Virus record (IMG/VR): IMGVR_UViG_3300009506_000005
Location: 49,770 to 113,769 of that record
DNA: 64,000 nt
Reading direction: 5' to 3' (one strand)
Source: a virus
Part shown: positions 1-64,000 of the stretch, piece after piece
Layout of the letters: each line of letters opens with the position of its first letter
How positions within the stretch are numbered: position 1 is the first letter of the stretch
Made by a program: the position numbers and the translations under genes
Notes under the pieces: model-generated
Told to the model about the DNA's origin: nothing
Database searches by the model: none
The model's input: the letters and a program-made list of their open reading frames with translations, nothing else

Positions 1-174
1 GCTTCTGCGGGACGATGAAGGCGGTGCCCGGCGTGGAGGTTCCGAGGCTGGAGACGAGGACGGCCTTCGACAAGATAGTCCGCCAGGAGCGCGATAGCTA
101 CGCGGTGAGGAAGGCGCACATGCGCTCGATGAACACCCTGGCCGACGCCCTGAGGAACCCGAGGTGATGGAGCG

Positions 175-465
175 ATGGAGGAGAGTCAGGCAGCGGTTCG
201 AGAAGGTGGTGAGGGCGATGCTCTCCGTGGCCCTTGGCCATGTCCGAATTGTGGTGACGAACTGGGCATCTCGACTGTGGAAAAACGCGCGAAGGTGCTT
301 CGCCCTGGGGACAAGGACTTCGTCACTGTCGTTTATGCTTTCGCCCGGTGCACCGCGTGCAGGACGCGGATTGACGCAGCGGGAATCGGCCGCGAGGATG
401 CGGCGCAAGACCTCGCGCGAATCATACGTGCGAGGGGAGAGGTAAGGAACGATGGCAAAGGATAA
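175..465 (+). CDS. Zn-finger hypothetical protein (Lar-like CxxC..CxxC)
   Basis: PCPNCG...RCTAC motifs; overlaps next gene. Confidence 0.5.
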   Translation: MEESQAAVREGGEGDALRGPWPCPNCGDELGISTVEKRAKVLRPGDKDFVTVVYAFARCTACRTRIDAAGIGREDAAQDLARIIRARGEVRNDGKG

Positions 466-679
466 GAAGAAGACCGCGAAGGGAAAGACCGTTGAGACGC
501 CGAAGACTCCGGCGCGCTGGTTCAACGCCATGCAGCGAGACAAGGCGCTCGCGCACGGGAAGGACAACTCGCTCGACGTCTACGAGGTCACGCACGGGAA
601 GCACAAGGCCGGCTTCTTCGTTGGCGACAAGCTCCCGAAGACGGCTACGGGTTCCACTGTCAAGAAGATCACCGAGTAA
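452..679 (+). CDS. basic hypothetical protein
   Basis: ORF with SD and strong GC3 codon bias. Confidence 0.6.
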   Translation: MAKDKKKTAKGKTVETPKTPARWFNAMQRDKALAHGKDNSLDVYEVTHGKHKAGFFVGDKLPKTATGSTVKKITE

Positions 680-713
680 GGTGCTCGGCAAAGGTAAAGA
701 AAAGAGGTAAAGG

Positions 714-1145
714 ATGAGACTCGAATTCACGGGACACAGTGACGACGCCGTCCAGATCGAGCGCTACCGCTCGGGGAATGTGGACGAGGAGCCGGAGACG
801 GACGAGGCTTCGGCAATGGGCGAGGGCGCGTTCCAAGCGTCCTTCAACGTGCTCGGTCCGGGGAAGGTGTGCGGCGAGTGCGGACACGAGAGCGACGCGG
901 AGACGCTCGCGATCGTCTTCGCCCACTTCCTCCCGACCGGGTGTTGGTCTTTCTCGATCTCGCCCGTCGAGGAAGACAAGGCGCTTCCCGCGGACTGGAA
1001 GGTCACGACGATCCAGGGTCACGGCTACTCGACCGCGCTTGTGATCAACTCGGAGCACGCGCTCGGAGTGAGCAGCGGCAAGGGAGGGAAGAAGATCTTC
1101 TCGGTGCCGACCCCGAAAAGCGAGGCCGAAGAGGTGACCGAATGA
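714..1145 (+). CDS. hypothetical protein
   Basis: ORF with purine-rich leader; ATGA-coupled to next gene. Confidence 0.6.
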   Translation: MRLEFTGHSDDAVQIERYRSGNVDEEPETDEASAMGEGAFQASFNVLGPGKVCGECGHESDAETLAIVFAHFLPTGCWSFSISPVEEDKALPADWKVTTIQGHGYSTALVINSEHALGVSSGKGGKKIFSVPTPKSEAEEVTE

Positions 1146-1594
1146 AGGCCGCCGAATTCCTCCGCTCGTTCAAGTTCCGCGTGACCATTGACGGGCGCTT
1201 CGTCGGGATCTCTCGCGTCTCCGAAATCGAATATCTGATCGCGCGCAGCGGGAACGGCTACTGCAAACCGATCACGATCGAGTCCGCGCCGAAGGCGGGG
1301 ACGGGTGGACTCGCGGAGGCGCTCGGCTCTCGGCCGTGGGCGCGGCGTGACGTGACGCTCACCGAGAGCACGCGAGAGGGCGAGACCGGCCGCGTGATCC
1401 GTCTCCGCTCTTGCAAGCTCAAGGGCTACACGATCGCGGAGCATGACGCGATGGCGGACGGCGTGGTGATCGATCGCGTGAAGCTCCACCCGAAGCGGAT
1501 CGATATCGTGGCGGGGCCGGCGAAGTCCTACGTGAAGCCGCGGCCCGTCGCGAAGATCGAGCCGGGCCTCCCGCCTTCGGAGGTGTCGCCATGA
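1142..1594 (+). CDS. orphan T4 gp19-like tail tube paralogue
   Basis: FKFRVTIDG, PITIE, RRDVTL..REGE, C...HDAMADGVVID align by eye with the tube at 55022-55483. Confidence 0.6.
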   Translation: MKAAEFLRSFKFRVTIDGRFVGISRVSEIEYLIARSGNGYCKPITIESAPKAGTGGLAEALGSRPWARRDVTLTESTREGETGRVIRLRSCKLKGYTIAEHDAMADGVVIDRVKLHPKRIDIVAGPAKSYVKPRPVAKIEPGLPPSEVSP

Positions 1595-1887
1595 ACCCGG
1601 AGACCAATCGGTTCGAGCAGCTCCGCGAGTCAACCGAGGAAGAGACGGCGGAGATCAACAAGCGCATGGTGGAGAGCCTCAAGAACTTGGCGAAGGTTGC
1701 GTCCGGCTCCTTCCTCTTGCGCCCGGACGGCTCGCCCGTCCCCGGCCACTGGCCGATCCTTTCGGTGGGAACGAAGGTTGAGATCGAGGGGTACACGTTC
1801 CGGGTCGGCTACATCGGGGAGAGCGTGGTTCTCTTGGAGCCGATCGGGATCGTGGAGATCGGGAAGGGCGAAGAGGTGACGCCGTGA
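1591..1887 (+). CDS. hypothetical protein
   Basis: GGAGGTG SD, ATGA overlap. Confidence 0.6.
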   Translation: MNPETNRFEQLRESTEEETAEINKRMVESLKNLAKVASGSFLLRPDGSPVPGHWPILSVGTKVEIEGYTFRVGYIGESVVLLEPIGIVEIGKGEEVTP

Positions 1888-2089
1888 TCGATCACGATTG
1901 CAGCGGAGAGGGTTGTCTCGTGTGCGCGTGGGTCGAAATGTTCAAGTGCATCCGAGACTCCGTCTTCGATTTCGTGGACTGGTTTTTCGAGGCGCTCGGA
2001 GGCTCGAACGGTTGCCGGTGTCTCTATGCCGCGGCGATGGACGAGCGCGCGGAGGGCGTGGACGTGCGGCCGATCGTGGAGGTGCGCGA

Positions 2090-2461
2090 GTGAGCGGCGT
2101 TCACATCGAAGAGGCGCGCCCGGTGCGCTCGTGGGGATCGCGCATGGTCTACCGCGTCTCGTGGTCTTGCTCTTGGTGCGAGAGGCCGGTTGAGATCGAA
2201 CTCGACACGGAGATCGGATCGCGCGAAGCCTACCGCCGGGCGGAGGCCGTCAAGGATCTCCCGTGCCTCTTCTGTCTCGTTGGCGTTCCCCATCGGACCT
2301 ACTCGGAGACCGAGGGAGGCGAGACGGTTTGCACGGAGCACCGCGCCGCGCCGCTCGTGACCGTCGAGGAGTCCTACCTCGAAGCGCTCGAAGAGTACCA
2401 GCGGAGCAAGGGAGAGAGCGGCGGCGTGCTCACCTTGCGAGACGAAGGGGGGATCGAGTGA
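2090..2461 (+). CDS. Zn-binding hypothetical protein
   Basis: CSWC...CLFC; GTGA overlap. Confidence 0.5.
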   Translation: MSGVHIEEARPVRSWGSRMVYRVSWSCSWCERPVEIELDTEIGSREAYRRAEAVKDLPCLFCLVGVPHRTYSETEGGETVCTEHRAAPLVTVEESYLEALEEYQRSKGESGGVLTLRDEGGIE

Positions 2462-3576
2462 GCGCACGCGAGCCGGCCTTTGACGCGGGAGCAACCGCGG
2501 CCGATTACGCGCGAGCTGCTCACGCTTTGATCCGTGGTCACTTCACGACGCGCGAGGCTTGGGTCGAGATGCTGGACAAGGTGAGCGGCCCGGAGATTTC
2601 CGCGGACGTGGACGCCATGCTTCGCGAGTGCCTCGATCGGTTCGGCTACGTTCCCACGCTGGCGGCCCTCGTTCGCGAGAGCGCGAAGAGGGAGGCGGCG
2701 AGGAACCATCCGACCGTCAAGGACTTCGCCCCCTCGGATCTCAAGGCCCTCTACCCCGCGAAGGTGATCGAGGTGGAAGCCTACGAGATCGGAGCGGCGC
2801 AGATCAACGCACCGCGGATCGCCTACGAGATCCCGTCCAGCATTGCGGATCGCGTCTCCGGCCCGTTGACGGGATGGGCCGACCCGCTCTACCAGTGTTA
2901 CGCGCCGGACGTCCAGATCCCGATGGCGGGGGACGCGGTGTTGATCTCGTTCGTTGAGGGCCTCTCATACGGACGCGCGATCTGGCACCTCGGGCTGCCG
3001 GTCTCCGTATCGAGCGCGCTCACGAAGGACATGATCGAGCAAGCGATCGAGGACTTCCAACAAGTCCCCCCGCCGGCCGGTGGCGATCGCTACTCCGAGG
3101 CCATGCTCCGAAGAGAGGCGAAGCGGTTCTCCGATCGCGCGCTCAAGGACTACACGGACGATATCGCGAGCATGACGATCGCGGTCAACGGCGTTCCGCA
3201 TCCAGCTCTCGCCGGCTCCGGCTCGGACGCCAACTACGCGACGGCGAAGGCGCAGCTCGATCAGTTCGAGAACAATTTCTACGAGTGGGCAATGGGGAGA
3301 GAGACCTCCGCTATCGCGAAACAAGTGGACGCGGAGATCATGGCGCACTATGAGGGCGACGCCTCGCGCGTGACCGCGCAAGAGGTCGCGGACTCGATCT
3401 CAAAGGTTCCCGGGGTTGCGGCTGTGGTGACGCCGGATGGCGGCGAGGTGAGGGTGAGCAGCTCGAAGGAAGAGGCGAGGACGGAGATCGAGATCATGGC
3501 GCGCGCGGTGTGCGAGGACATCGATTCCTCGGAGGTTGGCCGCGAGTGGGACGCGGCGAAGAAAGGGGGCGCATGA
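2458..3576 (+). CDS. hypothetical protein with short motifs resembling virion proteins
   Basis: long ORF with GC3 bias, GTG start coupled to upstream stop. Confidence 0.6.
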   Translation: MSAREPAFDAGATAADYARAAHALIRGHFTTREAWVEMLDKVSGPEISADVDAMLRECLDRFGYVPTLAALVRESAKREAARNHPTVKDFAPSDLKALYPAKVIEVEAYEIGAAQINAPRIAYEIPSSIADRVSGPLTGWADPLYQCYAPDVQIPMAGDAVLISFVEGLSYGRAIWHLGLPVSVSSALTKDMIEQAIEDFQQVPPPAGGDRYSEAMLRREAKRFSDRALKDYTDDIASMTIAVNGVPHPALAGSGSDANYATAKAQLDQFENNFYEWAMGRETSAIAKQVDAEIMAHYEGDASRVTAQEVADSISKVPGVAAVVTPDGGEVRVSSSKEEARTEIEIMARAVCEDIDSSEVGREWDAAKKGGA

Positions 3577-3791
3577 TGGCGAAGCTCGACTTCTCGCTAC
3601 CGATCGAGATCGTCGTCTCCGCGGAGGTTCCCGAGGACGGGATCTATCTCGCGAGCGGGTTGAAGTTCGAGCCGAACCCGGAGGGGCCGGACACTCCGCC
3701 AGCGTTCGAGGTGCGGACCGAGGGCGAGCGCGTCGAGCTGATCAGCCGTGGCCGCGTGCGCTTCACTGGCGCGGCGAAGGTGAAGCTATGA
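3573..3791 (+). CDS. hypothetical protein
   Basis: ATGA-coupled on both sides. Confidence 0.5.
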   Translation: MMAKLDFSLPIEIVVSAEVPEDGIYLASGLKFEPNPEGPDTPPAFEVRTEGERVELISRGRVRFTGAAKVKL

Positions 3792-4339
3792 AGATGGCGA
3801 TCCCCGAGCCGGGCCACTTCACGGCCAAGCAACGCGAGCGCCGCCTCGACGGTTGCCGCCGGTGCGGGTTGTGTTGTGTCCTCTTCGCGATCTCGAAGTG
3901 CTCACGCGCCGACCGGGATCGACTCGGCCCGGAGTTCTTCGTCGAGCGCGAGGACGGCGGGATCGAGTTGCGGAGCGCGCCGCGTTCGTTCGTCCCGTCC
4001 GAGGTAGGCGGGACCGCTTGCGTCTTCTTGGAGTTCGACGGGGAGCGCGCGCGCTGCGCGGTCAACGAAGAGAAGCCGGGACTCTGCGCGCGTTGGAGTT
4101 GCGGCAAGCCGCAAGCCGCGGCGCTGATCGATTGGGCGCTCGCGAACCGTCTCGGCCGCCTCTCCGCGGAGGCCGAGCGCACGCACGATCTAACGTGCCG
4201 ATGGATCGACGCATGGGAAGAAGACCGGCGGAGCCGGACGCCAGCTCGACACGAGCGAGAGCGCCAGCTATGCGCGGATCTTTGGGAGAGCTATCGCGCG
4301 TTGCCGGGACATCCCGAGCACGCGGAAGGGAGAGCATGA
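3788..4339 (+). CDS. YkgJ-family cysteine cluster (Zn/Fe-chelating) protein
   Basis: CRRCGLCC ... CVFL ... CAVNEEKPGLC..WSC. Confidence 0.8.
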   Translation: MKMAIPEPGHFTAKQRERRLDGCRRCGLCCVLFAISKCSRADRDRLGPEFFVEREDGGIELRSAPRSFVPSEVGGTACVFLEFDGERARCAVNEEKPGLCARWSCGKPQAAALIDWALANRLGRLSAEAERTHDLTCRWIDAWEEDRRSRTPARHERERQLCADLWESYRALPGHPEHAEGRA

Positions 4340-4755
4340 TGGGCGAGTCAAGTTTCTCGGTTGAGATTTTCGACAAGGACGGGAACTACCGGAGGACGCT
4401 CCGGGTCGTCATGGCCGGCGCGGTGATCTACGTCTTCGCGGACGGGGACAACGATCGCGAGCTGGCGCGCGGAGAGTTGAAGGCCGCCGGGTTCGTGAAG
4501 TGGGAGCACCAAAACGGGATCTACAATTCCGAGGTTCAGACGATCGAAGAGGCGGCCCTCGCGTTCGATCCCGAGGCGGAGCCGGAGGTCACCGAGGAAG
4601 AGCCGAAGCCTTCGACGATCCGCGAGACCGGCTACACGCTCGAAGACATGGCCGCCGCGTGGAGCGCTGGCCGCGCGAACTTCAAGAGCTACGGCGAGGC
4701 GACGGGAGACGCGCCGGACTTCCTATCGTGGATCAAGGAGCGCAACGACGGATGA
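4336..4755 (+). CDS. hypothetical protein
   Basis: coupled ORF. Confidence 0.55.
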   Translation: MMGESSFSVEIFDKDGNYRRTLRVVMAGAVIYVFADGDNDRELARGELKAAGFVKWEHQNGIYNSEVQTIEEAALAFDPEAEPEVTEEEPKPSTIRETGYTLEDMAAAWSAGRANFKSYGEATGDAPDFLSWIKERNDG

Positions 4756-4960
4756 GCCGCGCTCGTGATCACCTCGCCGGTCCCTTCGTTGTGGACCGTG
4801 CCGCGCTCGACTTCTTGACGCCGGAGAGCGTCCGGTCTATTATGGCCGTCCGGGGGAAAAGGCCCCCGCAAGGTGAAGAACAAGAGGAGCCGCGCAAGGC
4901 TCCAACGCTGCGAGCTTCGATCGCTGATCAGCTCGCGGCCAAGGTAAAGAGAGGGGAACC

Positions 4961-5392
4961 ATGAACGAGTCGAGAGTGGAGGACGCGGCGCAAGTGATCC
5001 GCGATTTGCGCCGCGAGTTGAGGGAGGCGAGGAAGGTGATCAAGCTACAGGGCGAGATCACGGATAACCTCCGATCTTCCTCGATTGTGCGCGCGGAGTG
5101 TGAACTCTTCCGCGAGCTGCTACGCGCGCTCGTGGATGAGTGCTCGCCAAAGAGGATACCGGGGGACAAGAAGTTCCACGGGACCAAGGCACCGTCGAAG
5201 CACTTGCTCGAACTAGCGCGCAAGCAGATCGGCCAGCCGCTAGAGAAAGTAGACGCGGGAATCCCGGTCCAGTGTTCCGATTGTGGGCGCGAGGGGTTCG
5301 TCCGCTTCCGTCCCGACTTGCTACAGATCCCACAACTTGCGGAGGGGCCGTTCGTCACCATCGAAGAGCTGGATCGAGAGGTGACGCCGTGA
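4961..5392 (+). CDS. hypothetical protein (coiled coil + CxxC)
   Basis: ORF with SD. Confidence 0.55.
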   Translation: MNESRVEDAAQVIRDLRRELREARKVIKLQGEITDNLRSSSIVRAECELFRELLRALVDECSPKRIPGDKKFHGTKAPSKHLLELARKQIGQPLEKVDAGIPVQCSDCGREGFVRFRPDLLQIPQLAEGPFVTIEELDREVTP

Positions 5393-5796
5393 GCGCGCGC
5401 GTAGAGATCACCGAGAGACTCGGGGCGCTGCGCGCGGTGGCGCTCGACGCGACGCCCGGACCGTGGACGATTTCCTCGGACGGGAACGGGAATGTCTCCG
5501 GCGTGATGCCGGAGCCGGAGGTTCTACACGACGGGGAGATCTTCTTCGCGCACAACCGAGAGCGCGAGAACTTCGAGGCGGACGCGGAGTTCATCGCGGC
5601 GCTCGATCCGCCAACGGTGATCGGCTTACTCGACGCGCTCGACGAAGTGATCGCAGCGCTTCACCCGGAAGAGGGATCGAAGTCAGTGGGTCACGCTTCG
5701 TTGATCTCGGTCGGCAAGGCGCGCCACGCTCTCGCGATTCACGGGATCGCCTTCATGGACGGTCTACCGCCGGATCCGGAAGAGGTGACGCCATGA
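5389..5796 (+). CDS. Ead/Ea22-like protein
   Basis: LRAVALDATPGPW ... DAEFIAALDPPTVIGLLD signature. Confidence 0.75.
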   Translation: MSARVEITERLGALRAVALDATPGPWTISSDGNGNVSGVMPEPEVLHDGEIFFAHNRERENFEADAEFIAALDPPTVIGLLDALDEVIAALHPEEGSKSVGHASLISVGKARHALAIHGIAFMDGLPPDPEEVTP

Positions 5797-8252
5797 GCGA
5801 GCGAATTCCTATCACCGAGAGGCTCCACGCCTTGCGCGCCGTCGCCATCGGCGCGAACGCCGGCATAGTGTGGGAAACATTCCTCGCGGACAAGGAAGTC
5901 TTCCGCGTCGTGACGGAAGAGATCTCCCACCATCCGAGCGTGACTGTCGCGGAGTGCAAATGGGGCAGTTCACCGAAGGAGAATGCGCGGCACATTGCCA
6001 CGTTCGATCCCCCCACCTGCATCGAACTGCTCGACCTGATCATATCGTTGCAGCGGCGCATAGAGGATCCGGACACGGAGCTTTGTGACAAGAAGGCGCC
6101 TGAGTACGAGGTGGTCACTCTCGATGATCGTCTTGAATCCGCCATCGGGCATCTCTCGTCGCATCTCGGGGTCATCAACGTAGACCTCGCCGCGCTGATC
6201 GATGCGGCAATCGCCGAGCTCGTTCGCCAGCGTGAGCGCGGTGATGCCCTCGTCCTCACCGTGGAGATCCTGTCCAAGGCCGTCGAGTCCGCGCGATCGG
6301 AGTTTGTGAAGAGCGCCTCCGAGGGTGCTGCGATTCGTAAGCTCATGGACAAGGTCGGCGAGCTGGAGTCCGAACTGGATTCCGCCAAGGATCCCATCCC
6401 AATGGACAACGCCGAGCGCGAGATCAGGCGAGCGCGCGAGCAGCGGGACAGCATCTCCGATCAGTACGCACGCCTCTTGGCCGAGCTCAACCCGGGGCGC
6501 GAGGACCCGATCCTGGTTGTGAAGAAGCTCAAGGAGGCGTCCTCCGGTCCGGGCGAGAAGCAGCTTGAGCACATGAAGGACAAGGCGCGCATTCAGGCGA
6601 GTTCCCTCCAGCGCTTCAAGCGGGACGTCACTGCCGAGCTCGGGCTTGGGGAGGACGCCAGCGTGCCCGTCATCCTCTCCGCGATCGGCCGACTCGATGG
6701 AGATGGTGGTGCCGCGGCAAAGCTCTACTCCGAGCTGTGCGAGCGCATCAAGCGGTCCCACAAGGAGAACGGCGGCCGCGAGGACGAGGGCTTCTTCTCG
6801 TTCGTCGACCGCATCTGTGGCGAACTCACACTCACAAACGAGACCCTGGGGCGTGTGCGGCGGGAGAGGGACACAGCCCGGGCGAGGCGAGACGAGCTGC
6901 GCTCTCAGCTCATCAACTCCAAGGCCGAGCGAGGCGCCGAGGCCGAGGCTCTCCGGGTCGCGTTTGAGCAGATGTCCGAGCGCAGCGACCTGGACAACAT
7001 CTCCGTCTGCGATGAGATCGTGGCCGTCCTGGAGCGCGTGGACGCCGAGGAGTCCCTGGCCTACATGGAGAGGCTCAAGTCGATGGGAGCGCAGCGGGAC
7101 AGTGCCATGTCAGCTCTGGAGGAGTTGGAAGCCACGGTCAGTCTCATCGGGGACATGATCCAGCGGTATCAGGAGCACGGCATCCCCTCGCCGGCGAAGC
7201 TCGTCTCGCAGCTGGCCGAGGTCATGGAGAACCCCGAGGAGGGCCCGCCTCTGGACCACGACGCGATGAAGCCAGAGAAGATGCTGGCTGCGGACCTCAA
7301 CGAGGAGATCGCCGTCGCGGACTTCCTGCGCCGGAAGGTGGACGCCTTCGGCCGCTGGTTCAAGGCGAACTGCGTGATGACAAAGACAGACGAGAACGGC
7401 ACGCTGGAGCTGGACGGCATCGCCCCGGGTGCGGAGCCGGCCGAGGAGTTCGAGCGCCTGCTCTCGGACAACGAGTACTTCGGAGAGGAGCCGCGCAGTG
7501 GATACTGGAAGTGCAACAACTGCGGCGACATCCAGGACAAGGAAGAGGAGGTCAAGTGCTGGGCCTGCGGCAAGGGAGAGATGATCTATCACGAGGGCGT
7601 ACCAGGCCACACCGAGAATCCCGATGTCCTGTACGACAAGTGGATCAAGGACATCATGTCCCAGACCGCAGAGCCCACACCCCATGATGTCTTTGCCTAC
7701 GCCTTGGGCGCGAACGGATGGGTCGCTGTTGAGGAGGAGGATGGGAAGTGGTTCTGGGTTCTCGATGAGACCGGGTTCCCAGGGTTCAAGGGGCGTGTGC
7801 AAGCCTCGGACGCGGATGTCTTGGACGCCCTGGACAGGGACGACTACGAACACATGGTCAAGCTCCTCGGCGGAGGATGGAGCGAGGAGGCGCGCCAGTC
7901 GATTACCAAGAACATCATCGATCCCGCCAGTGATGTCTGGGAGCAGTTCGAGAAGTGGGCAGATCCCACCCGCGCCGGCGTCCGTCCCCAGCTCATCGGC
8001 GAGCCCAAGGAATGGGAGTGCGTGTACTGCTCAACCATCAACCAAGGGCGCTTCTCTTGCCGAGTGTGCGGCTCAGGCATGGGCTTCGAGGCGGCCGTTG
8101 CCACCAAGGCGAACCGCTGCGGTGACTGTGCCCTCTTCGATGGCGGTGGTCCGGATGACCGCTACGAGGAGTGTGTGGAGGGCCACGCCGAGGACATCAC
8201 CGCGGACTCGCCGGCCTGCGATGAGTTCGAGGAGAGGGAGGTGGAGGAGTGA
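5793..8252 (+). CDS. Ea22-like N-terminal domain + long coiled coil + multiple Zn fingers
   Basis: NARHIATFDPPTCIELLD; heptad-rich middle; WKCNNC/CWAC, WECVYC/CRVC, CGDC. Confidence 0.65.
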   Translation: MSERIPITERLHALRAVAIGANAGIVWETFLADKEVFRVVTEEISHHPSVTVAECKWGSSPKENARHIATFDPPTCIELLDLIISLQRRIEDPDTELCDKKAPEYEVVTLDDRLESAIGHLSSHLGVINVDLAALIDAAIAELVRQRERGDALVLTVEILSKAVESARSEFVKSASEGAAIRKLMDKVGELESELDSAKDPIPMDNAEREIRRAREQRDSISDQYARLLAELNPGREDPILVVKKLKEASSGPGEKQLEHMKDKARIQASSLQRFKRDVTAELGLGEDASVPVILSAIGRLDGDGGAAAKLYSELCERIKRSHKENGGREDEGFFSFVDRICGELTLTNETLGRVRRERDTARARRDELRSQLINSKAERGAEAEALRVAFEQMSERSDLDNISVCDEIVAVLERVDAEESLAYMERLKSMGAQRDSAMSALEELEATVSLIGDMIQRYQEHGIPSPAKLVSQLAEVMENPEEGPPLDHDAMKPEKMLAADLNEEIAVADFLRRKVDAFGRWFKANCVMTKTDENGTLELDGIAPGAEPAEEFERLLSDNEYFGEEPRSGYWKCNNCGDIQDKEEEVKCWACGKGEMIYHEGVPGHTENPDVLYDKWIKDIMSQTAEPTPHDVFAYALGANGWVAVEEEDGKWFWVLDETGFPGFKGRVQASDADVLDALDRDDYEHMVKLLGGGWSEEARQSITKNIIDPASDVWEQFEKWADPTRAGVRPQLIGEPKEWECVYCSTINQGRFSCRVCGSGMGFEAAVATKANRCGDCALFDGGGPDDRYEECVEGHAEDITADSPACDEFEEREVEE

Positions 8253-9463
8253 CTGATTCCAAATGCGTCACCCATCACCACGCTTGCGATTGCCGAGAGG
8301 CAAAGTTCGCGGAGCAGGAGTCCAGGTTGCGATCGATTCAGAACGCCATCCGCGCATTCGACCGCATCGGAGAGCCTGCCGGCGAGCAGGTGGCGTCACT
8401 TCTTTCCTCCATCCGAGATCTCTCCGGTGCAAGACCGCCCGGGCCAGTACTGTCTGAGGTGGAGAATCTCCAGGCTCGTTCCCGCACACTGGAGGTAATC
8501 GAGACCACGATGCGCATGTCCAGGTCCTGGCCGGACGGTCTATCGCTATCGGAGGCTATCGCCCAGGGACTGGATGAGCGGGATCGCGCGATCGCAAAAC
8601 TGGAGAGAGAACGGGAGAGACTGCGCAAGCTGCTCAGGGACAAGGCCGAGGGAGACCCCACCAACTACGCGGCCAAGGAGGCGGTAGTCCTCGCCGATCC
8701 AGACGCCGCCCACGCCGCGGTGATCAACGACCTCAGGCGGGAACTGGCCCGGGCCAACGAGGCGAACCGTGAGCTCGTTCAGGCCGCGGTGGACAACGAG
8801 ACGCTGATCCAGGGGATGAAGGCCGACCTCAAGCGCCAGGGTGAGTGCATCTCCGAGGTGGTGAAGTGGGGGAGGGGCGTGGATCTCTGGGGCAAGTCCC
8901 CGGACGTGCCTGCGGCCGAGGGTCTCAAGGACGCTCTTGCCATCGCCCTGACCCTGGACGGTGACCCTGTGGTCATGGCTGCTCTGAGTCCGGCCCGGTC
9001 CCTGGTCAATGACATCCTCCTGAGCGAGCGCAACCACTGGAAGGACCAGGCCGAGGCTCACAAGGACGGCGTGGACATCGAGCTGGATGCGCTCAACGAG
9101 CTCGGGCTGCGGACGCGGACCCACCACGTGGACGAGAGCGGCGGGTTCGTCTCCATCCTCCTGGACAACGCTGAGGTGGAGATCCGGACGGTGGACGAGA
9201 GGGACGCGGACCGGACGCGCTACAACGGGAAGCGTGAGGTGCTTATCACATGGTGGAACGAAGCGATCGGATCGAACGATGATCCCGAGCAGACCTACTG
9301 GTTCGGCGGCGACCCGAGCAACCCGAAGGATCACGAGTACAGGAGGGTGCCGCGTGCCGATGGAGACAAGTGCGATCGCTTCGTCTGCATCCACTGCGGG
9401 GCCGTGGCCTGGCACCATACCGCGGCGAGGCCATGTACGCGCCAGATGGAGGCAACACAATAA
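8249..9463 (+). CDS. coiled-coil hypothetical protein
   Basis: CVTHHHACDCRE N-terminus, C-terminal CxxC. Confidence 0.6.
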   Translation: MTDSKCVTHHHACDCREAKFAEQESRLRSIQNAIRAFDRIGEPAGEQVASLLSSIRDLSGARPPGPVLSEVENLQARSRTLEVIETTMRMSRSWPDGLSLSEAIAQGLDERDRAIAKLERERERLRKLLRDKAEGDPTNYAAKEAVVLADPDAAHAAVINDLRRELARANEANRELVQAAVDNETLIQGMKADLKRQGECISEVVKWGRGVDLWGKSPDVPAAEGLKDALAIALTLDGDPVVMAALSPARSLVNDILLSERNHWKDQAEAHKDGVDIELDALNELGLRTRTHHVDESGGFVSILLDNAEVEIRTVDERDADRTRYNGKREVLITWWNEAIGSNDDPEQTYWFGGDPSNPKDHEYRRVPRADGDKCDRFVCIHCGAVAWHHTAARPCTRQMEATQ

Positions 9464-45954: not shown

Positions 45955-46781
45955 TGACGGATCCGAAGGCCACCTCTGCGAACGGAACGAGCCAGACCAA
46001 CTGGGAGGTGGGTCCTGACGCAACGCATGGCGTGAAGAGAGAGAACGGGGAGCTGGCCCTGTACGATCCGGTCAGCGGAACCAGGAAGATGACGGAGCTC
46101 GGTGCCAACTCACCTCTCGTGTTGACCTTTCAAGCATTCCCAACGGCCAACGGTATCATCAACCTCGTTGGTGGTTACGAGCAGACGGATGCTGCGGCGG
46201 TCGTGACGAGTGCAGCGCCGTACACATCGGCGCACCCCTACTTCAACTCGAGGCTGTATGCTGACATCACTGCGATCACCGGGGAACCTTTCACTTTGAG
46301 AATCACAGGTACCTCTGTGAGTCAGGTCGACGCGTCGTTGACTCCAGCCGACACAGAGGACATTAATGTCACTGGTATCGGAAAGTACGCGTCGACGAAG
46401 TACTGGATCACAGCACCACAAGTCAGCATCGTAGAGGCGTCCAAGTCAGCCACGATGGATTTGTCCAAGGCGTTTGCCTATGCGCTTGGTGGAAAGAAGC
46501 TGACCGTGAAAGGTCTTATACTTCTCTGGACCCCTGACGGCACGACCTGGGACCTCGAGGTCAGGATGGTGCGAGTGGCCAACGACGGAACGCTGTCGGA
46601 CGTCTTCAATGTCGTCTTGCATTCCACAGACACGCCTCCGTGGGCTGCCAACTTGGAGCTTGGGAGATATAAGCTGTCCAGTCTAAGCGAGGTTGTCGAT
46701 GGAACAGCCGGGGAAGGGGTCTATTTGTACGCTGATCAGCAAAAGATTGCGGATCTTCTAGTAGGGATAGAGTATGAGTAA
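45954..46781 (+). CDS. putative virion structural protein
   Basis: Thr/Ala-rich beta protein. Confidence 0.5.
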   Translation: MTDPKATSANGTSQTNWEVGPDATHGVKRENGELALYDPVSGTRKMTELGANSPLVLTFQAFPTANGIINLVGGYEQTDAAAVVTSAAPYTSAHPYFNSRLYADITAITGEPFTLRITGTSVSQVDASLTPADTEDINVTGIGKYASTKYWITAPQVSIVEASKSATMDLSKAFAYALGGKKLTVKGLILLWTPDGTTWDLEVRMVRVANDGTLSDVFNVVLHSTDTPPWAANLELGRYKLSSLSEVVDGTAGEGVYLYADQQKIADLLVGIEYE

Positions 46782-48057
46782 TACACAGAAATATTTTCGG
46801 CTGGACGAGCCTTCGCTTTGTGATTGCTCACAAAAGAATGTTGTTGATTCTGAAGACTGCGTCCTGATAAACGATTGCTGCAATGATGGCGCTCCAAGAA
46901 CGGTAAAGGCACATTCTGTGGCAAGGGTCCCGGAAGTATTTAATGTGCAGACGGATGACTATACGCTTGAGCAAGACGATGCGATCAAGACGATTCAAAT
47001 TTCCATGGAGACAACCGCGTTTGTGACGGTGCCAAAGAATCAGACTATCTCTATTGGAATTGGATCTGTTTTCAATATCGATAATATCTGCGATGAGAAT
47101 GTGATAGTGATGCTGGACTCTGGAGTGGTCCTGCGCTCTAGAGACGGTGCAAATATCATCCCTCCATATTCGTCAGCCCGTCTCAAGAAGATAGGCGAAG
47201 ACGAGTGGTTGCTTACTGGGGATCTCTCTGGAAGCACTCCGAAATTTACATGCACAAGCACTGGGGTCCTGAGCATTATCACGAGAGGACCAGCCGATAC
47301 TGGAATGTGGGTGAATTGGGGAGATGGTTCAGATCTTGAATGGATAGCTCACGTTGGGATATCGACGGATGTAACAACAAACCACGATTACGACGGATCG
47401 CCAGGAACAAAGGAGATCGCCTTCACGGGTCTTCTTGAGCAGATTACCAAGTTCAGGGTGACGGATCCTGAATTTGGCGGGTCCATGCAGGCAGTGGCAG
47501 CGTTTGCAGGTCTCACATATTTGAATCTGGCATTCACAGCTATTGAGGGATCTCTTGAAGACATCTCAGGTTTGACGTCATTGGAGGTAGTGTATCTATA
47601 CAACATAGATGGTCTTGTTGGAGATCTTGAGGCACTCGTTCCGCTCACAAATATCACCCATCTTTACCTGTATAGCACCGGAATACAGGGAGACGTTTCA
47701 GAGCTGTATTGCCTGTCATCAATGAGAGATTTTCGTGTCAACAGTCTTGGCGCTTCAATAGTGGGAAACGTGGGATCACTTTCAGCATGGGAAGAGTTGA
47801 CTTGCCTGTACGTTCAGTACACGTCTGCTAGCTACGTGACCGCAGTTCTCCCCGTGTGGGATGGGATATTGTGGAGATTCCAAGGATGTGCACTGACTGA
47901 ATTGGAAGTAGACAGCGTTTTGATAGATCTTGCTTCCAGTGGTTCCGTGAATGGGAACTTGAATATCTCCGGAGACAACGCTGCGAGATCCTCGGCGAGT
48001 GATTCCGCATTGGCTACACTGTTGGCAAATGGATGGACGGTAACGGTTAATGAGTGA
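46774..48057 (+). CDS. leucine-rich-repeat protein with PKD-like motif
   Basis: NWGDGS; repeats G(S/D)L..L..LT.L..L.L..T.I; lower GC. Confidence 0.7.
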   Translation: MSNTQKYFRLDEPSLCDCSQKNVVDSEDCVLINDCCNDGAPRTVKAHSVARVPEVFNVQTDDYTLEQDDAIKTIQISMETTAFVTVPKNQTISIGIGSVFNIDNICDENVIVMLDSGVVLRSRDGANIIPPYSSARLKKIGEDEWLLTGDLSGSTPKFTCTSTGVLSIITRGPADTGMWVNWGDGSDLEWIAHVGISTDVTTNHDYDGSPGTKEIAFTGLLEQITKFRVTDPEFGGSMQAVAAFAGLTYLNLAFTAIEGSLEDISGLTSLEVVYLYNIDGLVGDLEALVPLTNITHLYLYSTGIQGDVSELYCLSSMRDFRVNSLGASIVGNVGSLSAWEELTCLYVQYTSASYVTAVLPVWDGILWRFQGCALTELEVDSVLIDLASSGSVNGNLNISGDNAARSSASDSALATLLANGWTVTVNE

Positions 48058-52754: not shown

Positions 52755-54995
52755 ATGGCTTCAACCGAATTGCTGGCTTCCAAGATCGTCATTCTCGAAG
52801 AGGCGCCGCGCATCCCGGCGATCGCCCCGCAGCCCACCGCCGTCACCGGCGTCGTTGGGATCTGCGAGCGCGGACCCATCGGCGTCCCCACTCTCGTGAC
52901 CTCCCAGGAGGAGTACACGGAGATCTTCGGCGGGTACACGCTCAACAGCGGGCCCGCCATCGCCGCGCAGGGGTTCTTCCAGAACGGAGGCTCGTTCCTC
53001 TGGGTGGTGAGAACCTGTCACTACACGGATATCCTGGACCCGGACGCCTTCACCGCGACGAAGGGCGAGCGGATGCTCCAGACCGTTGGTGGCGCTGACT
53101 CCCCGGCGCAGGTGACGAGCACTCTGGCCGAGACCTATCAGCTCGCGCACAACGACACGCTCGATATCAGCGTGGACGGCGGGGGCCCGGCCACGGCGCA
53201 GTTCCAGGCGACGGCCGCACAGGCGATCTGCAACGGGCCGTTCCCGATCGCCCCTCTTCCCGCCGGCGTGAACATGACGCTCACGATCGGTGGCGTGGCG
53301 CACGTCGTCAACTCGGGGATCGGCGGCCAGACCACGGCCCTCGACATCTCGGATCTGATCAACCAACAGATCACCGGAGCATACGCCTTCGCGCTCGGTG
53401 CCCAGGTCTACATCATGACCGACAAGAAGGGCACTGGGCAGAGCATCACGGTGGCGGCCGGCGCCCCGGACATGGCGGCCCTCATCGCCCTCCCCACGGG
53501 AACCACGAGCGGCGGCGGGAACGTGGCCGACATCGATGCGGTGACGGGTGCGGAGGTCAAGACCAGGGTTGAGGCAGCGGTGGCCGGAACCGCGGTCACG
53601 GTCAACGGCAACGGGACGATCACGATCGCCACGGTGGCGGTTGGTCCCACGCACGACATCCAGGTGCAGGCGAGTTCCACGGCCGACACGAAGATCGGCC
53701 TGGACAACCTGCTCCACACGGGTGGAACGGCCACGCCGCAGGACACGCTCAAAGTGGAGGGCAAGACGGAGGGGTCGTACACCGACAACATCACGATCCT
53801 CATCGCCGATGCCACGAACGGCGAGGCGGACTCCTTCAACCTGTCCGTGATCGTCTCCGGGGTCGTGACCGAGGTCTACCCGAACATCACGATGGACAGC
53901 ACGAGCGCGTCCTACGCGGAGACGGTCATCAACCACGCGAGCCTGGGCAGCAACCTGATCAGCGTGGAGGACCAGAGCGCCACGGGGACGCTGGAGGAGC
54001 GGAAGCCGGCCAACGGGACGTCGGCGGCCCTGGCCGGTGGCGGTGATGGCCTGGCGGGCATCGTGGACATCGACTTCCTCGGGAGCGAGGCGGCGAAGAA
54101 CGGGATGTACGCGCTGGACCTGGTTCAGCAACTCGGCCTCCTGATCATCCCCGGGAAGACGGGGAACTCGATCGCGAACGGGATGCTGGACTACTGCGAG
54201 GGCCACAGGAACGGCGGGACGTTCGCCATACTCGACCCGCCTCCGCTGGCCACGGTGCCGACGGCGCAGGACATGGTGACCTACGTGGAGCTCACCACGG
54301 CGATCCTGGGCAAGTCCGAGTTCGGTGCCATCTACTGGCCGCAGATCCTGATCACCAACCCGAGCACCACGGTGTTCGGGGACGGAGAGACGATCCCCGT
54401 GCCGCCCTCGGGCCACATCGCGGGTGTCTACGCCCGGAACGACGCGAGGATCGGCGGGGTCTACGAGAACCCGGCAGGTGTCGAGCAGAACGCCGGCACC
54501 GTGCTCGGGTGCGTGGGCTTCGAGACGGACGAGGTCCTGGACGAGCGGAAGCGGGACCTCATCTACCCGAAGCGCATCAACCCCATCACCCAGCTCCCCG
54601 GGACGCCGCGCCACATCGACGGGTCGCGGACGCTCAAGTCCACGGGCAACTTCCCGTACATCGGCGAGCGCCGGGGCGTGATCTTCATCGAGCAGTCCTT
54701 GAAGAACGGGCTGGTCTGGGTGAAGCACCGCCCGAACAATAGGGTGCTCCGACAGCGGGTGCGGAGGTCGGTCACGGCCTTCCTCCTGCGACAGCTGGAC
54801 GTGGGGGCCTTCCGGTCCACGGTCCCGAGCGAGGCGTTCAGAGTGGACGTGAGCGATGCCCTGAACCCGCCTGCGGTGGAGTTCGCCGGGCAGCTCAAGA
54901 TCAGGATCGGCCTCGCCACGAACAAGCCGGCCGAGTTCGTGATCCTGCTCGTGACGCAGGACACGCGGGCCTTCGAGGAGAGCCTCGCCGCCTAG
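52755..54995 (+). CDS. tail sheath protein
   Basis: RGPIG.P.LV, FFQNGG, AIYWP, PPSGHIAG, INPI, PAEFV. Confidence 0.95.
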   Translation: MASTELLASKIVILEEAPRIPAIAPQPTAVTGVVGICERGPIGVPTLVTSQEEYTEIFGGYTLNSGPAIAAQGFFQNGGSFLWVVRTCHYTDILDPDAFTATKGERMLQTVGGADSPAQVTSTLAETYQLAHNDTLDISVDGGGPATAQFQATAAQAICNGPFPIAPLPAGVNMTLTIGGVAHVVNSGIGGQTTALDISDLINQQITGAYAFALGAQVYIMTDKKGTGQSITVAAGAPDMAALIALPTGTTSGGGNVADIDAVTGAEVKTRVEAAVAGTAVTVNGNGTITIATVAVGPTHDIQVQASSTADTKIGLDNLLHTGGTATPQDTLKVEGKTEGSYTDNITILIADATNGEADSFNLSVIVSGVVTEVYPNITMDSTSASYAETVINHASLGSNLISVEDQSATGTLEERKPANGTSAALAGGGDGLAGIVDIDFLGSEAAKNGMYALDLVQQLGLLIIPGKTGNSIANGMLDYCEGHRNGGTFAILDPPPLATVPTAQDMVTYVELTTAILGKSEFGAIYWPQILITNPSTTVFGDGETIPVPPSGHIAGVYARNDARIGGVYENPAGVEQNAGTVLGCVGFETDEVLDERKRDLIYPKRINPITQLPGTPRHIDGSRTLKSTGNFPYIGERRGVIFIEQSLKNGLVWVKHRPNNRVLRQRVRRSVTAFLLRQLDVGAFRSTVPSEAFRVDVSDALNPPAVEFAGQLKIRIGLATNKPAEFVILLVTQDTRAFEESLAA

Positions 54996-56557: not shown

Positions 56558-59191
56558 ATGGCACTCGCCAACATGGGGGCTGGGTTCACGCTTGTTGCGA
56601 AGGATCTGGCGTCCCCCGTGTTGGGGCGCGTGGGCAACAACTTCATGCGCATGGGCAGCCGGGTGGAGAAGACCTCGGCTGGCATGGCGGCGGGGTTCCA
56701 GGCGATGGCCGTCGGGATGGGGGCGCTCAAGATCGGGACGGGGATCACGGGTGCTGTCGGTGCGGCGGCTGAGGCCGCAGGTGGATTCCAGCAAGGGATC
56801 GCGGCGATCGGTGTCATCTCCGGGGCCACCTCAGACGAGCTCAACCAGCTGCACGACGCGGCGATCAACGCGGCGCTTGGGACGAAGTTCTCGCCGGACG
56901 AGGCGGTGGAGGGCCTGACGAACCTGGCCACGGCCGGGCAGACGGCGCAGGAGCAGATGAGCACCCTCATCCCCGTGCTCGACCTGGCCACCGGGTCGCT
57001 GGGGCAGCTCGGACTTGGCGAGGCGTCAGCGGCCGTTGTCGGTACGCTCAAGGCGTTTGGCGAGGGCGCGGACCAGGCTGCGGTCACGACGGACAAGCTC
57101 CTCAAGATCACGCAGATGACCAACTTCCAGGCGCGCGACTTTGGTGTGGGGCTTTCTCGGGCAGCTACGTCAGCGGCCCTCTACAAGCAGAGCTTGGACG
57201 ATACCCTGATCGCCATGGGTCTGTTGCGGAACATGAACATCGAGGCGAGCGTGGCGTCCACCGGGCTGCGGGAATCATTCGCGCGCCTGGCGACGGACGA
57301 ACGCACCCAGCAACTCCTGGCGAAGAAGGGGGTCAAGGTCTTTGACGAGAGGACGAAGGCCGTGCGGCCCTTCCTCGATGTGATGGGGGACCTGGCGGTG
57401 AAGCTCAAGGACGCGAAGGATGCGGAGGCGTTCCTGACGACAACCCTTGGCTTCGGGCGCCGCGGCATGGCGGCGTTCAACGCCGTGGCCAACGCTCAGA
57501 AGACGATCATGGTCAACGGCCGCGAGGTGTCCCTCAAGGGTGCCCAGGCGATCGAGGCCATGCGGTTCGAGATCGCGAAATACGATACAGATCAGCAACG
57601 CGCGGAGGCGGCAACGAAACTCAGCACGGCCACGCTCCGTGAGTGGGGGAAGACGGCGAAGGGATCCAAGGGCGCCGCACTCGAATTCAGGGAGGCCCTA
57701 CTCGACACGGCGCAGGGGCAGAAGGAGCTGCTCCAGGGGTCGATAGAGACGCTCAAGACCGTGGTAGGCGAGGGAGCTCTGCCAATCATGAAGGTGATTC
57801 GCATGGCGCTGTTCAACGTGACGAGCGCGATCACCAATCTGCTCAACGCCATGCCCCCGTCCGTCCGCACCGCGATCCTCGGCGTGTTCGGGGCCATCGG
57901 AGGCATCGTCGCATCGGCCGGGGCCTTCCTCGTGTTGAAGGGCATCTTCGTGGTGCTCGGCCTGTCGATCACTGGCCTGGCGCTTTCGTTCTTGAAGCTG
58001 GCGCTTGTCATGGCGCCGATCACACTGCTCTTCGCCGGTCTTGCCGTCTCCGCTTTCGCCGCGTTCAAGGCGATCACCAAGGGCACCGGTCTCGCCGCTG
58101 ACTCCTGGTCAAACTTCGTGGACAAGGTGAAGCTCGGCTTCACGGCCATTACCGAGCTCTGGACCAGCGGCGCACTGTCATCGGAAACTACCAAGGAGCT
58201 GGAGAAGGTCGAGAACCAGGGTCTCATGCCGATCTTGGAGAGCTTCAATCGGTTCCTGAACAGGGCAGAGGCCTTCTGGGAGGGGTTGAAGGCTGGGTTC
58301 GACGTCGGCGTGGAGGGACTGACGGAACCCATGCGGGAACTGCGCCAGGCGGTGGCCGAGCTCTTCGGAAGAGATGGCGAGACGCTCACCGGACCCATCG
58401 GCGAGTGGAAGACGGCCGGCCAGGAGGTTGGTGCAACCCTCGGCGGCCTGGGGGAGATCATGCTTCGTGTCTTCACCGGGGCGATCAAGTTGATGACAGA
58501 GCTCAAGGGGCAGATGAAGGGGGTCTCTGCGGGTGATGTGGTGAGCGGGATTTTGAAGGTGGTCTCCGTCTTCACCACGCTCTGGAACGTGATCAAGTTC
58601 ATCAAGAACGCCGTGATGACAGTGATCGATCTAGTGGTCCTGAGCACGAACATCTGGGTGGAGATGTTCGGTTCCATCGTCCAGGGGGCAATGACAGCCT
58701 TCGGCGTGATCAAGAAGCTGGCCACGCTCGATTTCAGCGGTGCCATGGAGACGGCGAAGTCAGGCTTCCGCGGAATCGTCGAGTCCTTCAAGGGAGGCGG
58801 GATCCTGTCATCCGTCGAGCGTATCTCCACGCGCTTCGGTGGCCCGGACCTCGATGCGGTGCGTGGCGGCCTGGAGGGCGTCCAGGACTTCGCCGGGCCG
58901 ACGAAGTCCTCTGAGGAGATCCTGGGTGATACGGTGGCGAAGCTAGGGCGCCTCCGCAGGGAGCGCGAGGGAGTTCTGGAGGCGGCCGCAGCTCGTGGTG
59001 GGAGTGGCATGGACCCGGAGCTCATGCTGTCTGCTCTGGAGCGCATCGACAAGGGAATCGCCACGCTCTCCAAGAAGCGCGATGAGATCAAGGTGGAGGT
59101 CGATGGCGAGACGCTGTTCAACATCATGCAACAGCGAGATCGCGAGGGCCTGGAGCGGAGTATGGGGTCCGAGGCCCTGGAGGAGGTGTGA
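56558..59191 (+). CDS. tape measure protein (TP901-type domain)
   Basis: GAT.DEL, TKFSP.EA.EGL..LA.AG; hydrophobic middle. Confidence 0.92.
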
Positions 59192-59823
59192 TGGCGGTAC
59201 AGAGACCAGATTCCCCCTCGCGCAAGCCCTCTGGCGATCGGAACCTATCGGACATCTTCGGCGCCGGGCGCCAGCTCGTCAGGGGCACGATCACCAACGA
59301 GTACAGCAACGAGACCTGGATCTTCTTCTTCAACCCGAATCAGGTGCAGGAGGAGTACGCGGCGAACTACAACACGCAGTCTCCGATGGGCATGAGCCAC
59401 GGCTACCACCAATACCAGTCGGGAAAGAACACGGGCATCGCCTTCGACATCTACTTCAACCGCATGCTGGTCATGCGCGAGCTGTCTGGCCATCCGCTTG
59501 TCGACGCGCAGGCGAGGTTCGATCTCGCTGTAGAGCTTGGCGAAGAGGGGAAGAAGTTCTTGCAGTCGCTCCTCTATCCTCCTGAGCCGGAGCCGCAGCT
59601 GTCTCCGAGTGAGGGCATCATCGGTGCGGCACCGCCAGCATGCCGCGTGGAACTCGTGAACGTGTTCTCCATGCGCCTGAGGCTGCTCACCCTGTCGTTC
59701 AACATGCAGCGGTTCGACAAGAGGAACAGGGTGATGATCTGGACTGCGAGCACGCGCTGGGAAGAGGCGCCAATCTCCAGGATCACGATGGAGGACGTCC
59801 GCAAGCTCGGGAGCTTTAGGTGA
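59191..59823 (+). CDS. tube initiator / CIS tube-like baseplate protein
   Basis: FFFNP.QV.E, APP, F; follows TMP. Confidence 0.7.
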   Translation: MAVQRPDSPSRKPSGDRNLSDIFGAGRQLVRGTITNEYSNETWIFFFNPNQVQEEYAANYNTQSPMGMSHGYHQYQSGKNTGIAFDIYFNRMLVMRELSGHPLVDAQARFDLAVELGEEGKKFLQSLLYPPEPEPQLSPSEGIIGAAPPACRVELVNVFSMRLRLLTLSFNMQRFDKRNRVMIWTASTRWEEAPISRITMEDVRKLGSFR

Positions 59824-63579: not shown

Positions 63580-64000
63580 ATGGCACTCCTACCAACGAGC
63601 TACGACTATACAGACCGTGATTTCGATGCCTTACGCGAGCGCCTCATCGATCTCGCCACCTCGGTGTTTCCCGATTGGACGGACTTCGAGATCGCCAACT
63701 TTGGCAACATCATGATGGAGATGTTCTGCTTCGTTGGAGACGTTGTCACGTTCTATGAGGACAAGCAGGCACCCGAGGGGCGCTGGCTGTTCGTGCAGCT
63801 GCGCAAGAACGCGATCGCCCTGGCGAAGCTGATTGGCTACGAGCTGAGCGGCGCCACGGCAGCTACGGCAGACACGGTGATCAGCCTGGTCAACGGTCCG
63901 CTGCCAGGGGACGTGAACATCCCCATCTTCTCTGAGATTCGTACCGAGGAGGTGACGGACCCGATCAGGGGGCAGATCCAGGAGGCCGCCACCATCCCAG
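63580..64000 (+). CDS. baseplate J/gp6-like wedge protein (truncated by window edge)
   Basis: DYTDRDFDALR, FPDWTD, N.G, LAKLIGY. Confidence 0.85.
   Translation, partial: MALLPTSYDYTDRDFDALRERLIDLATSVFPDWTDFEIANFGNIMMEMFCFVGDVVTFYEDKQAPEGRWLFVQLRKNAIALAKLIGYELSGATAATADTVISLVNGPLPGDVNIPIFSEIRTEEVTDPIRGQIQEAATIP

Follow-up and report, generated by a model that had tools for sequence, protein, structure and literature searches.

An orphan myophage gene encodes a predicted tail tube-fold protein lacking both ring-stacking loops

Results

An intact orphan gene lies apart from the tail module

The window analysed here is a stretch of 64,000 nucleotides, bases 49770-113769 of a 113,769-bp IMG/VR virus record (G000), read 5' to 3' on one strand. 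The record has direct terminal repeats, and its completeness is rated 100%. The myophage that it represents belongs to an unsampled lineage, with a sheath protein that shares at most 29% identity with that of any isolated phage, the best matches being Bacillus phage BCD7 and Streptomyces phage BRock. The features discussed below are listed in Table 1.

Table 1. Features of the window and of two further phage contigs (window positions unless a record is named)
Feature	Position	Strand	Remarks
Upstream ORF, 143 aa	714..1145	+	No family match; translationally coupled to P0001
Upstream junction	1128..1145	+	Shine-Dalgarno-like GAGGTGA, then ATGA stop/start overlap with the preceding ORF; variant of GAGGTGWCNCCATGA
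Orphan tube-fold gene P0001, 150 aa	1142..1594	+	ORF, coding signal, predicted fold, profile homology
Downstream junction GAGGTGTCGCCATGA	1580..1594	+	One of four motif copies in window 1-6000
Copies of the 15-nt junction GAGGTGWCNCCATGA	1580-1594, 1873-1887, 5378-5392, 5782-5796		Shine-Dalgarno plus stop/start overlap
Tail sheath gene	52755..54995	+	Marks the true tail module
True tail tube gene P0002	55022..55483	+	PF06841, E = 2e-22
CIS_tube-like gene, likely tube initiator	59188..59823	+	3' of the tape measure gene; PF19266, E = 8e-6, 26.1 bits against a cut-off of 27
Deoxyribosyltransferase-like gene, G000	genome 48650-48964		1.9 kb upstream of P0001; the sole DUF1937 gene in G000
Deoxyribosyltransferase-like gene, G001	L002 10498-12057		57 nt downstream of P0003, directly adjacent
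Deoxyribosyltransferase-like gene, G002	L006 9438-10001		Upstream of P0041, overlapping (TGATG)

P0001 is a genuine, intact gene. The difference between GC3 and GC2 turns positive exactly at its ATG, and GC3 of its frame reaches 0.87. Stop/start overlaps tie it to both neighbours (its ATG to the stop before it, its stop to the ATG after it), with a Shine-Dalgarno-like GAGGTG at both junctions. The coupled upstream ORF has no usable match in the ESM Atlas; a homologue of it also precedes the homologue of P0001 in a related phage fragment (G001). Within the protein, residues 1-124 form the core, and residues 125-150 form a Pro/Lys-rich C-terminal tail of low model confidence.

The four copies of the junction GAGGTGWCNCCATGA in window 1-6000 compare with 0.07 expected. 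The motif joins unrelated small ORFs, so that these end in ...EVTP, ...EVSP or ...EVTE, and may be a recombination or cassette joint. Window 1001-6000, which holds P0001, is also the sole 5-kb block of the 113.8-kb genome that is poor in CCTG/CAGG words (2, where the rest of the genome predicts 61.8). The G001 fragment is poor in these words throughout, and the gap suggests restriction-site avoidance or a mosaic origin of the block.

The tail module of G000 comprises, in order, a head-tail adaptor, a Neck1/tail completion protein, a TIG-domain protein, the sheath, the tube, a T4_baseplate-like protein, the tape measure, the CIS_tube-like protein, a LysM protein, a GPD hub and a V-type spike. 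The resident tube protein (P0002) is acidic; its β2-β3 loop and its helix are both long, and a loop comes after the helix. The CIS_tube-like gene likely encodes the tube initiator and fills the second tube-fold slot of the module. The canonical tube and initiator slots are both occupied without P0001. No T6SS genes were seen in the annotated parts of this complete phage genome.

The sequence-only reading had placed the orphan among accessory genes, 54 kb from the tail module. Its surroundings agree with this: small ORFs without family match, a CxxCxxCC protein and two Ead/Ea22-like genes lie around it. P0001 is indeed outside the tail module, 53 kb from the sheath and tube genes within the window, but this is the distance one way round only in a genome with terminal repeats, and the genes are probably separated by less than 53 kb along the shorter path. 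Behind the tail and baseplate genes comes the last ORF of the window (63580-63999), whose frame stays open to the end of the record; because of this open frame and the direct terminal repeats, the tail module probably runs on at genome position 1. No later-baseplate or fibre genes were found between the tail module and the window end. Upstream of the module, a low-GC patch (window 46001-48000, 0.51 against about 0.62) contains an ORF of 427 aa (46774-48057) whose C-terminal half looks leucine-rich-repeat-like by eye. Lying among probable fibre genes, this patch may be a host-recognition cassette that has been swapped.

P0001 is distantly related to the resident tube protein

The proposal that P0001 is a tail-tube paralogue had rested on three pairs of short motifs, and these withstood comparison. 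BLASTP aligned P0001 with P0002 at 21% identity (E = 0.003), and the pairs FKFRVTIDG/FKFVVEIDG, TREGE/DRNGD and HDAMADGV/WDNAADEV were aligned both there and in the profile-profile comparison, in which a profile of 17 orphan-family members (A1) matched the profile of the resident tube family (A3) with 97.5% probability (hhalign, E = 7e-12, 121 columns). Run on its own genome, the orphan-family profile picked the C-terminal half of the true tube (E = 4.5e-7). Against PDB sequences its best match was Afp1 (E = 0.017), and the top five were all CIS tube proteins.

The Pfam family of the tube, PF06841, scored only 11.9 bits on P0001 (E = 0.21; gathering threshold 28.2 bits) and matched six of the 17 family members at E ≤ 1 (best, 0.0021). 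PHROGs gave no match for P0001, Pfam and PHROGs gave none to initiator or terminator families (PF19266 CIS_tube; gp48, gp54 and gp3 types), and PADLOC gave none for P0001 or its near neighbours. From these sequence and profile comparisons, we conclude that P0001 and the tube protein of this phage are distantly homologous. The P0001 family appears to have split long ago from the gp19/Afp1/Hcp tube superfamily.

The predicted fold is that of a tube subunit without its stacking elements

AF2 modelling on the 17-sequence family alignment gave a confident model (pLDDT 83.8, pTM 0.74). In a Foldseek search of the PDB, the tubes of PVC, AFP, Anabaena CIS, AlgoCIS and cyanophage A-1(L) headed the matches of this model (E from 2e-8 to 2e-6), ahead of Hcp proteins, and VIA-align superposed it on Pvc1 and Afp1 with a Z of 13.5 (2.5 Å over 124 residues). 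Further, PF06841 was present in 24 of the 30 ESM Atlas clusters nearest to P0001. P0001 is thus predicted to have the tube β-sandwich fold, in line with the gp19-type fold claimed from the letters. The fold alone does not tell which kind of tube-fold protein P0001 is, because the BFVD matches of the model span tubes, terminators of the gp3 type and tube proteins of the baseplate.

P0001 retains the β-sandwich core together with the N-terminal strand, and the N-terminal segment is the best-conserved stretch between the orphan and tube families. With the tubes of contractile injection systems and myophages (Pvc1, Afp1, T4 gp19 and the cyanophage A-1(L) tube, PF06841), P0001 shares the β-sandwich, an FxFxVxIDG N-terminal strand, a conserved Cys on the long strand and, close to the C-terminus, the motifs (W/H)D and xP. 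Two elements set it apart from them. The β2-β3 hairpin (tube residues about 37-52), from which the sequence-only reading had roughly a dozen residues missing, is 14 residues shorter in P0001 according to both BLASTP and the profile alignment; the connection is about 5 residues long in the P0001 model, against a 14-residue low-confidence loop in the tube model. A second deletion, which had escaped that reading, removes about 11 residues of helix and loop right after the α-helix, itself reduced to 6 residues in the P0001 model against 15 in the tube model, and with it the post-helix α-loop of contractile, non-T6SS tubes. Both deletions are common to 17/17 aligned family members.

According to two reviews, the long β2-β3 loop is the main ring-to-ring contact of tail tubes and in T4-type tubes acts together with the loop after the helix (PMC9022992); it folds onto the subjacent ring (PMC8718954). 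The λ ring has a negative, distal face on the side of the loop and a positive, proximal face on that of the N-loop (PMC8718954). Deletion of the β2-β3 loop abolished tube formation in T5 and SPP1 and left mostly free hexameric rings in YSD1 (PMC8718954). These mutants (YSD1_22 Δβ2-β3, SPP1 gp17.1 Δloop and T5 pb6 Δloop) keep their fold, cannot polymerise and miss the same element as P0001 (PMC8718954). They are laboratory constructs of siphophage proteins, whereas the P0001 family is natural, conserved and related to contractile tubes. P0001 would probably fold as a tube subunit and form free rings unable to polymerise, which matches the engineered deletions in YSD1, SPP1 and T5. A four-copy complex prediction on the family alignment scored 0.36, against a mark of 0.42, and is counted neither for nor against ring formation.

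The sequence-only reading had further proposed a decoy that terminates the tube chain. Tubes grow from the baseplate upward, and the loops of each incoming ring would therefore dock on the N-terminal side of the ring below. Since the β2-β3 loop folds onto the subjacent ring (PMC8718954, PMC9022992), the element missing from P0001 would be the very part that docks an incoming ring on the growing end. P0001 would therefore add poorly to such an end, which makes the chain-terminating mechanism doubtful. It retains the N-terminal, accepting side and could still take up the hairpins of genuine tube subunits.

Short Hcp proteins of Bacteroidota T6SS-iii have a similar minimal core of about 120 aa, and nearly their whole chain aligns with P0001 (VIA-align Z of 11.4 for the 123-aa F. 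johnsoniae Hcp1, 6bdc, and 10.8 for B. fragilis Hcp5, 7yw0); across Hcp matches Z runs from 10 to 11.4. In contrast to these proteins, P0001 is phage-encoded and has no T6SS context, and the short T6SS-iii Hcp proteins are absent from the six PDB matches of the orphan-family profile at E ≤ 10. As Hcp proteins of a T6SS, the short T6SS-iii ones would be expected to form tubes, and a short loop by itself therefore leaves room for a role as a tube.

Charge inversion across the orphan family

The resident tube protein and P0001 also differ in charge, a feature likewise beyond the sequence-only reading. The whole-protein pI is 9.84 for P0001 and 4.48 for the tube; it lies between 9.0 and 10.5 in 15 of 18 orphan-family members and between 4.5 and 5.0 in all 14 true tubes of the resident family. 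Net charge is about -10 in the true tubes and about +5 to +9 in the orphan family, and the change is spread across many aligned positions. A complementarity of charge between the orphan and the tube hairpin was considered and dropped, the hairpin not being consistently acidic across the tube family.

True tube lumens are negative for DNA passage (PMC9022992, PMC8718954). P0001 is therefore unlikely to be a DNA conduit, as far as its basic whole-protein charge can be applied to a lumen. The same contrast, since acidic lumens let DNA slide through (PMC9022992, PMC8718954), and the family-wide inversion would suit a tube ring reused, with a basic surface, to encircle or bind DNA or RNA. Such a ring may work, for example, with a neighbouring nucleoside-2-deoxyribosyltransferase-like enzyme in DNA modification or in nucleotide-based conflict. 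P0001 follows genes of replication (DnaB, DUF5131, RlaP), and a deoxyribosyltransferase-like gene (DUF1937/DUF4406 or Nuc_deoxyri_tr2) lies near the family member in 3/3 contexts (Table 1); G000 and G001 are related, however, which leaves just two independent contexts. The charge, moreover, is that of the whole protein and does not separate lumen from outside, and our searches found no longer, fused forms of the family, which is weak evidence against this reading. We know of no DNA-binding ring with a tube fold, which also counts against it, and we regard a nucleic-acid-binding ring as rather unlikely.

The orphan family is rare and conserved

An exhaustive HMMER search of 1.84 billion representatives gave 22 matches, mostly of 125-160 aa. 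One of these (P0019), a repetitive zinc-ribbon protein, was discarded as a false positive, leaving 21 relatives at 22-53% identity and of matching length. F12, C91, D102 and P117 are invariant or near-invariant in the family. A tblastn search of isolated phages with P0001 gave no match, and a word-indexed protein search returned the query itself only. Searches for related loci in viral, metagenome and genome collections gave nothing for P0001, P0005, P0006, P0007, P0010 or P0016; L002 and L006 were the two loci recovered. As far as these sequence searches reach, the P0001 family is rare and conserved; its existence extends the sequence-only reading.

Between P0001 and its G001 homologue, the NG86 dN/dS ratio is 0.58, while syntenic neighbours mostly lie at 0.14-0.33 and two accessory neighbours at 0.52 and 0.85; these comparisons are at saturating divergence and GC3-biased. 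The comparison of dN/dS among homologues, suggested along with the sequence-only reading, thus yields a ratio below 1 and shows just that P0001 is not free of constraint.

The alternative offered with the decoy proposal was a decaying duplicate of the tube gene. The Pfam score of only 11.9 bits and a dN/dS above that of most neighbours would fit decay or neutral drift. The ORF is intact, however, its coding signal is strong and its AF2 model confident, and about 20 family clusters share its features, with both deletions and the basic charge family-wide; at 21% identity to the resident tube, P0001 is too far removed to be a recent copy. An intact, length-conserved family with F12, C91, D102 and P117 maintained argues against decay more strongly than does dN/dS. 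We therefore reject a decaying or drifting duplicate as very improbable.

Three family members lie in non-structural gene blocks

Three genomic contexts, from two lineages, were read. In G000, DnaB, DUF5131, RlaP and DUF1937 genes precede P0001, and the terminase, portal and capsid genes begin about 28 kb downstream of it. Two genes in between, 5389-5796 and 5793-8252, are tandem paralogues with a shared Ead/Ea22-like N-terminus (39% identity over 84 aa, E = 2e-10); the product of the second is extended to 819 aa, with zinc-ribbon-like CxxC pairs.

The G001 fragment (L002, 29 kb) has 13 genes syntenic with G000, at 30-67% identity. Its homologue of P0001 (P0003) shares 51-53% identity with P0001 and occupies the same place, after the same upstream ORF. 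Weak PADLOC similarity to LmuB (SMC/ABC ATPase) was seen at window 8249-9460 (E = 0.01) and in the L002 10498-12054 protein (E = 4e-4), where the LmuB-like region is fused to an N-terminal DUF1937 domain.

The third context belongs to a distant phage (G002; L006, a 104.8-kb contig rated 57% complete). Its family member (P0041) is the last gene of a non-structural island of roughly 7 kb (L006 3293-10441), which sits between two gp19-type tube genes on one side and the T4_baseplate-like and tape-measure genes on the other, so that P0041 is about 7 kb from the tube genes. The island contains a caspase-like peptidase (Peptidase_C14, E = 2e-24; also PADLOC 'caspase'), a Nuc_deoxyri_tr2 protein and genes without assignment. 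This position fits a moron island and is compatible with a tail role too.

A tail role would make P0001 a minor tail part or assembly factor encoded off the module, either a basal ring under the first tube ring, for which an acceptor-only shape is needed, or a chaperone that stays on acidic tube subunits until the baseplate can receive them. Large phages often scatter their tail genes, P0041 is closely followed by the T4_baseplate-like and tape-measure genes, and the structural matches of the P0001 model include initiators and terminators (Pvc5, Z of 13.0, and gp3-type proteins). These tube-fold proteins (Afp5/Pvc5, T4 gp48, gp54 and gp3, PF19266 CIS_tube) are not self-polymerising, and their structural scores are nearly as high as those of the tubes; unlike P0001, they are tail-module genes of normal tube length, and G000 already has its CIS_tube-like gene. 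The tube gene is already accompanied by another gene of tube fold in the tail modules of both G000 and G002. In G000 and G001 the orphan belongs to a block of small non-structural genes after replication-type genes and is coupled to small unassigned ORFs, and the island around P0041 is non-structural as well. On balance, a minor tail part or assembly factor has only a modest chance of being correct.

Discussion

The tube fold is familiar from proteins that build tails, tailocins, eCIS and T6SS. P0001 combines the predicted tube fold with the loss of both ring-stacking loops and the opposite charge, and is probably not a working tube. Besides the two loops and the charge, its distance from a sheath gene and its score below the Pfam threshold distinguish it from the tubes of contractile injection systems and myophages. 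We tentatively propose that P0001 may be an acceptor-only mimic of the tube that does not polymerise and that, off the virion, serves as a binder of tube-type proteins or as their decoy. The predicted fold, the homology, the family-wide deletions, the charge, the full tail module and the accessory-gene context are all consistent with this proposal.

As an acceptor-only mimic, P0001 would keep the face that accepts the hairpins of genuine tube subunits and could, off the virion, bind tube-type subunits or rings. Two outcomes can be envisaged. The assembly of a rival tail or tailocin might be derailed, P0001 acting as a false platform rather than as a chain terminator, or the hairpin of the phage's own tube protein might be covered. 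That the mimic misdirects rival tails or tailocins, or conceals the tube hairpin of its own phage from immune receptors that sense it, is a doubtful extension of the proposal.

Some of the evidence speaks against an off-virion mimic. P0041, placed between tube and tape-measure genes, could also be a tail component, a basic charge is just as suitable for binding nucleic acid, the contexts are only three and from two lineages, and the dN/dS of 0.58, at saturating divergence, is above that of most neighbours.

Another alternative is that P0001 acts as a shield or decoy against host immune sensors of tube proteins, for example DSR2 or those of the Avs16 type. Tail tube proteins trigger DSR2 (PMC10981675, PMC11087589), Avs16 is reported, on the basis of AlphaFold models, to contact the tube β-hairpin (PMC12803255), and a hairpin-accepting face could cover that hairpin. 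P0001 has no hairpin of its own, however, and would be no direct decoy for a hairpin-binding sensor; neither PADLOC nor another family search gave a match, and this role is one that we infer throughout. We consider it improbable.

A conserved family that keeps the tube fold, loses both stacking elements, reverses its charge and is encoded among accessory genes would show off-virion reuse of the tube fold. If P0001 binds tube subunits, it would offer a natural means to block or control the assembly of contractile machines and a candidate player in phage-phage or phage-immunity conflict. Should it instead be a hidden tail part, it would add one more component to the parts list of contractile injection systems; should the acceptor-only mimic hold true, the family would represent a new class of structural-mimic weapon or counter-defence.
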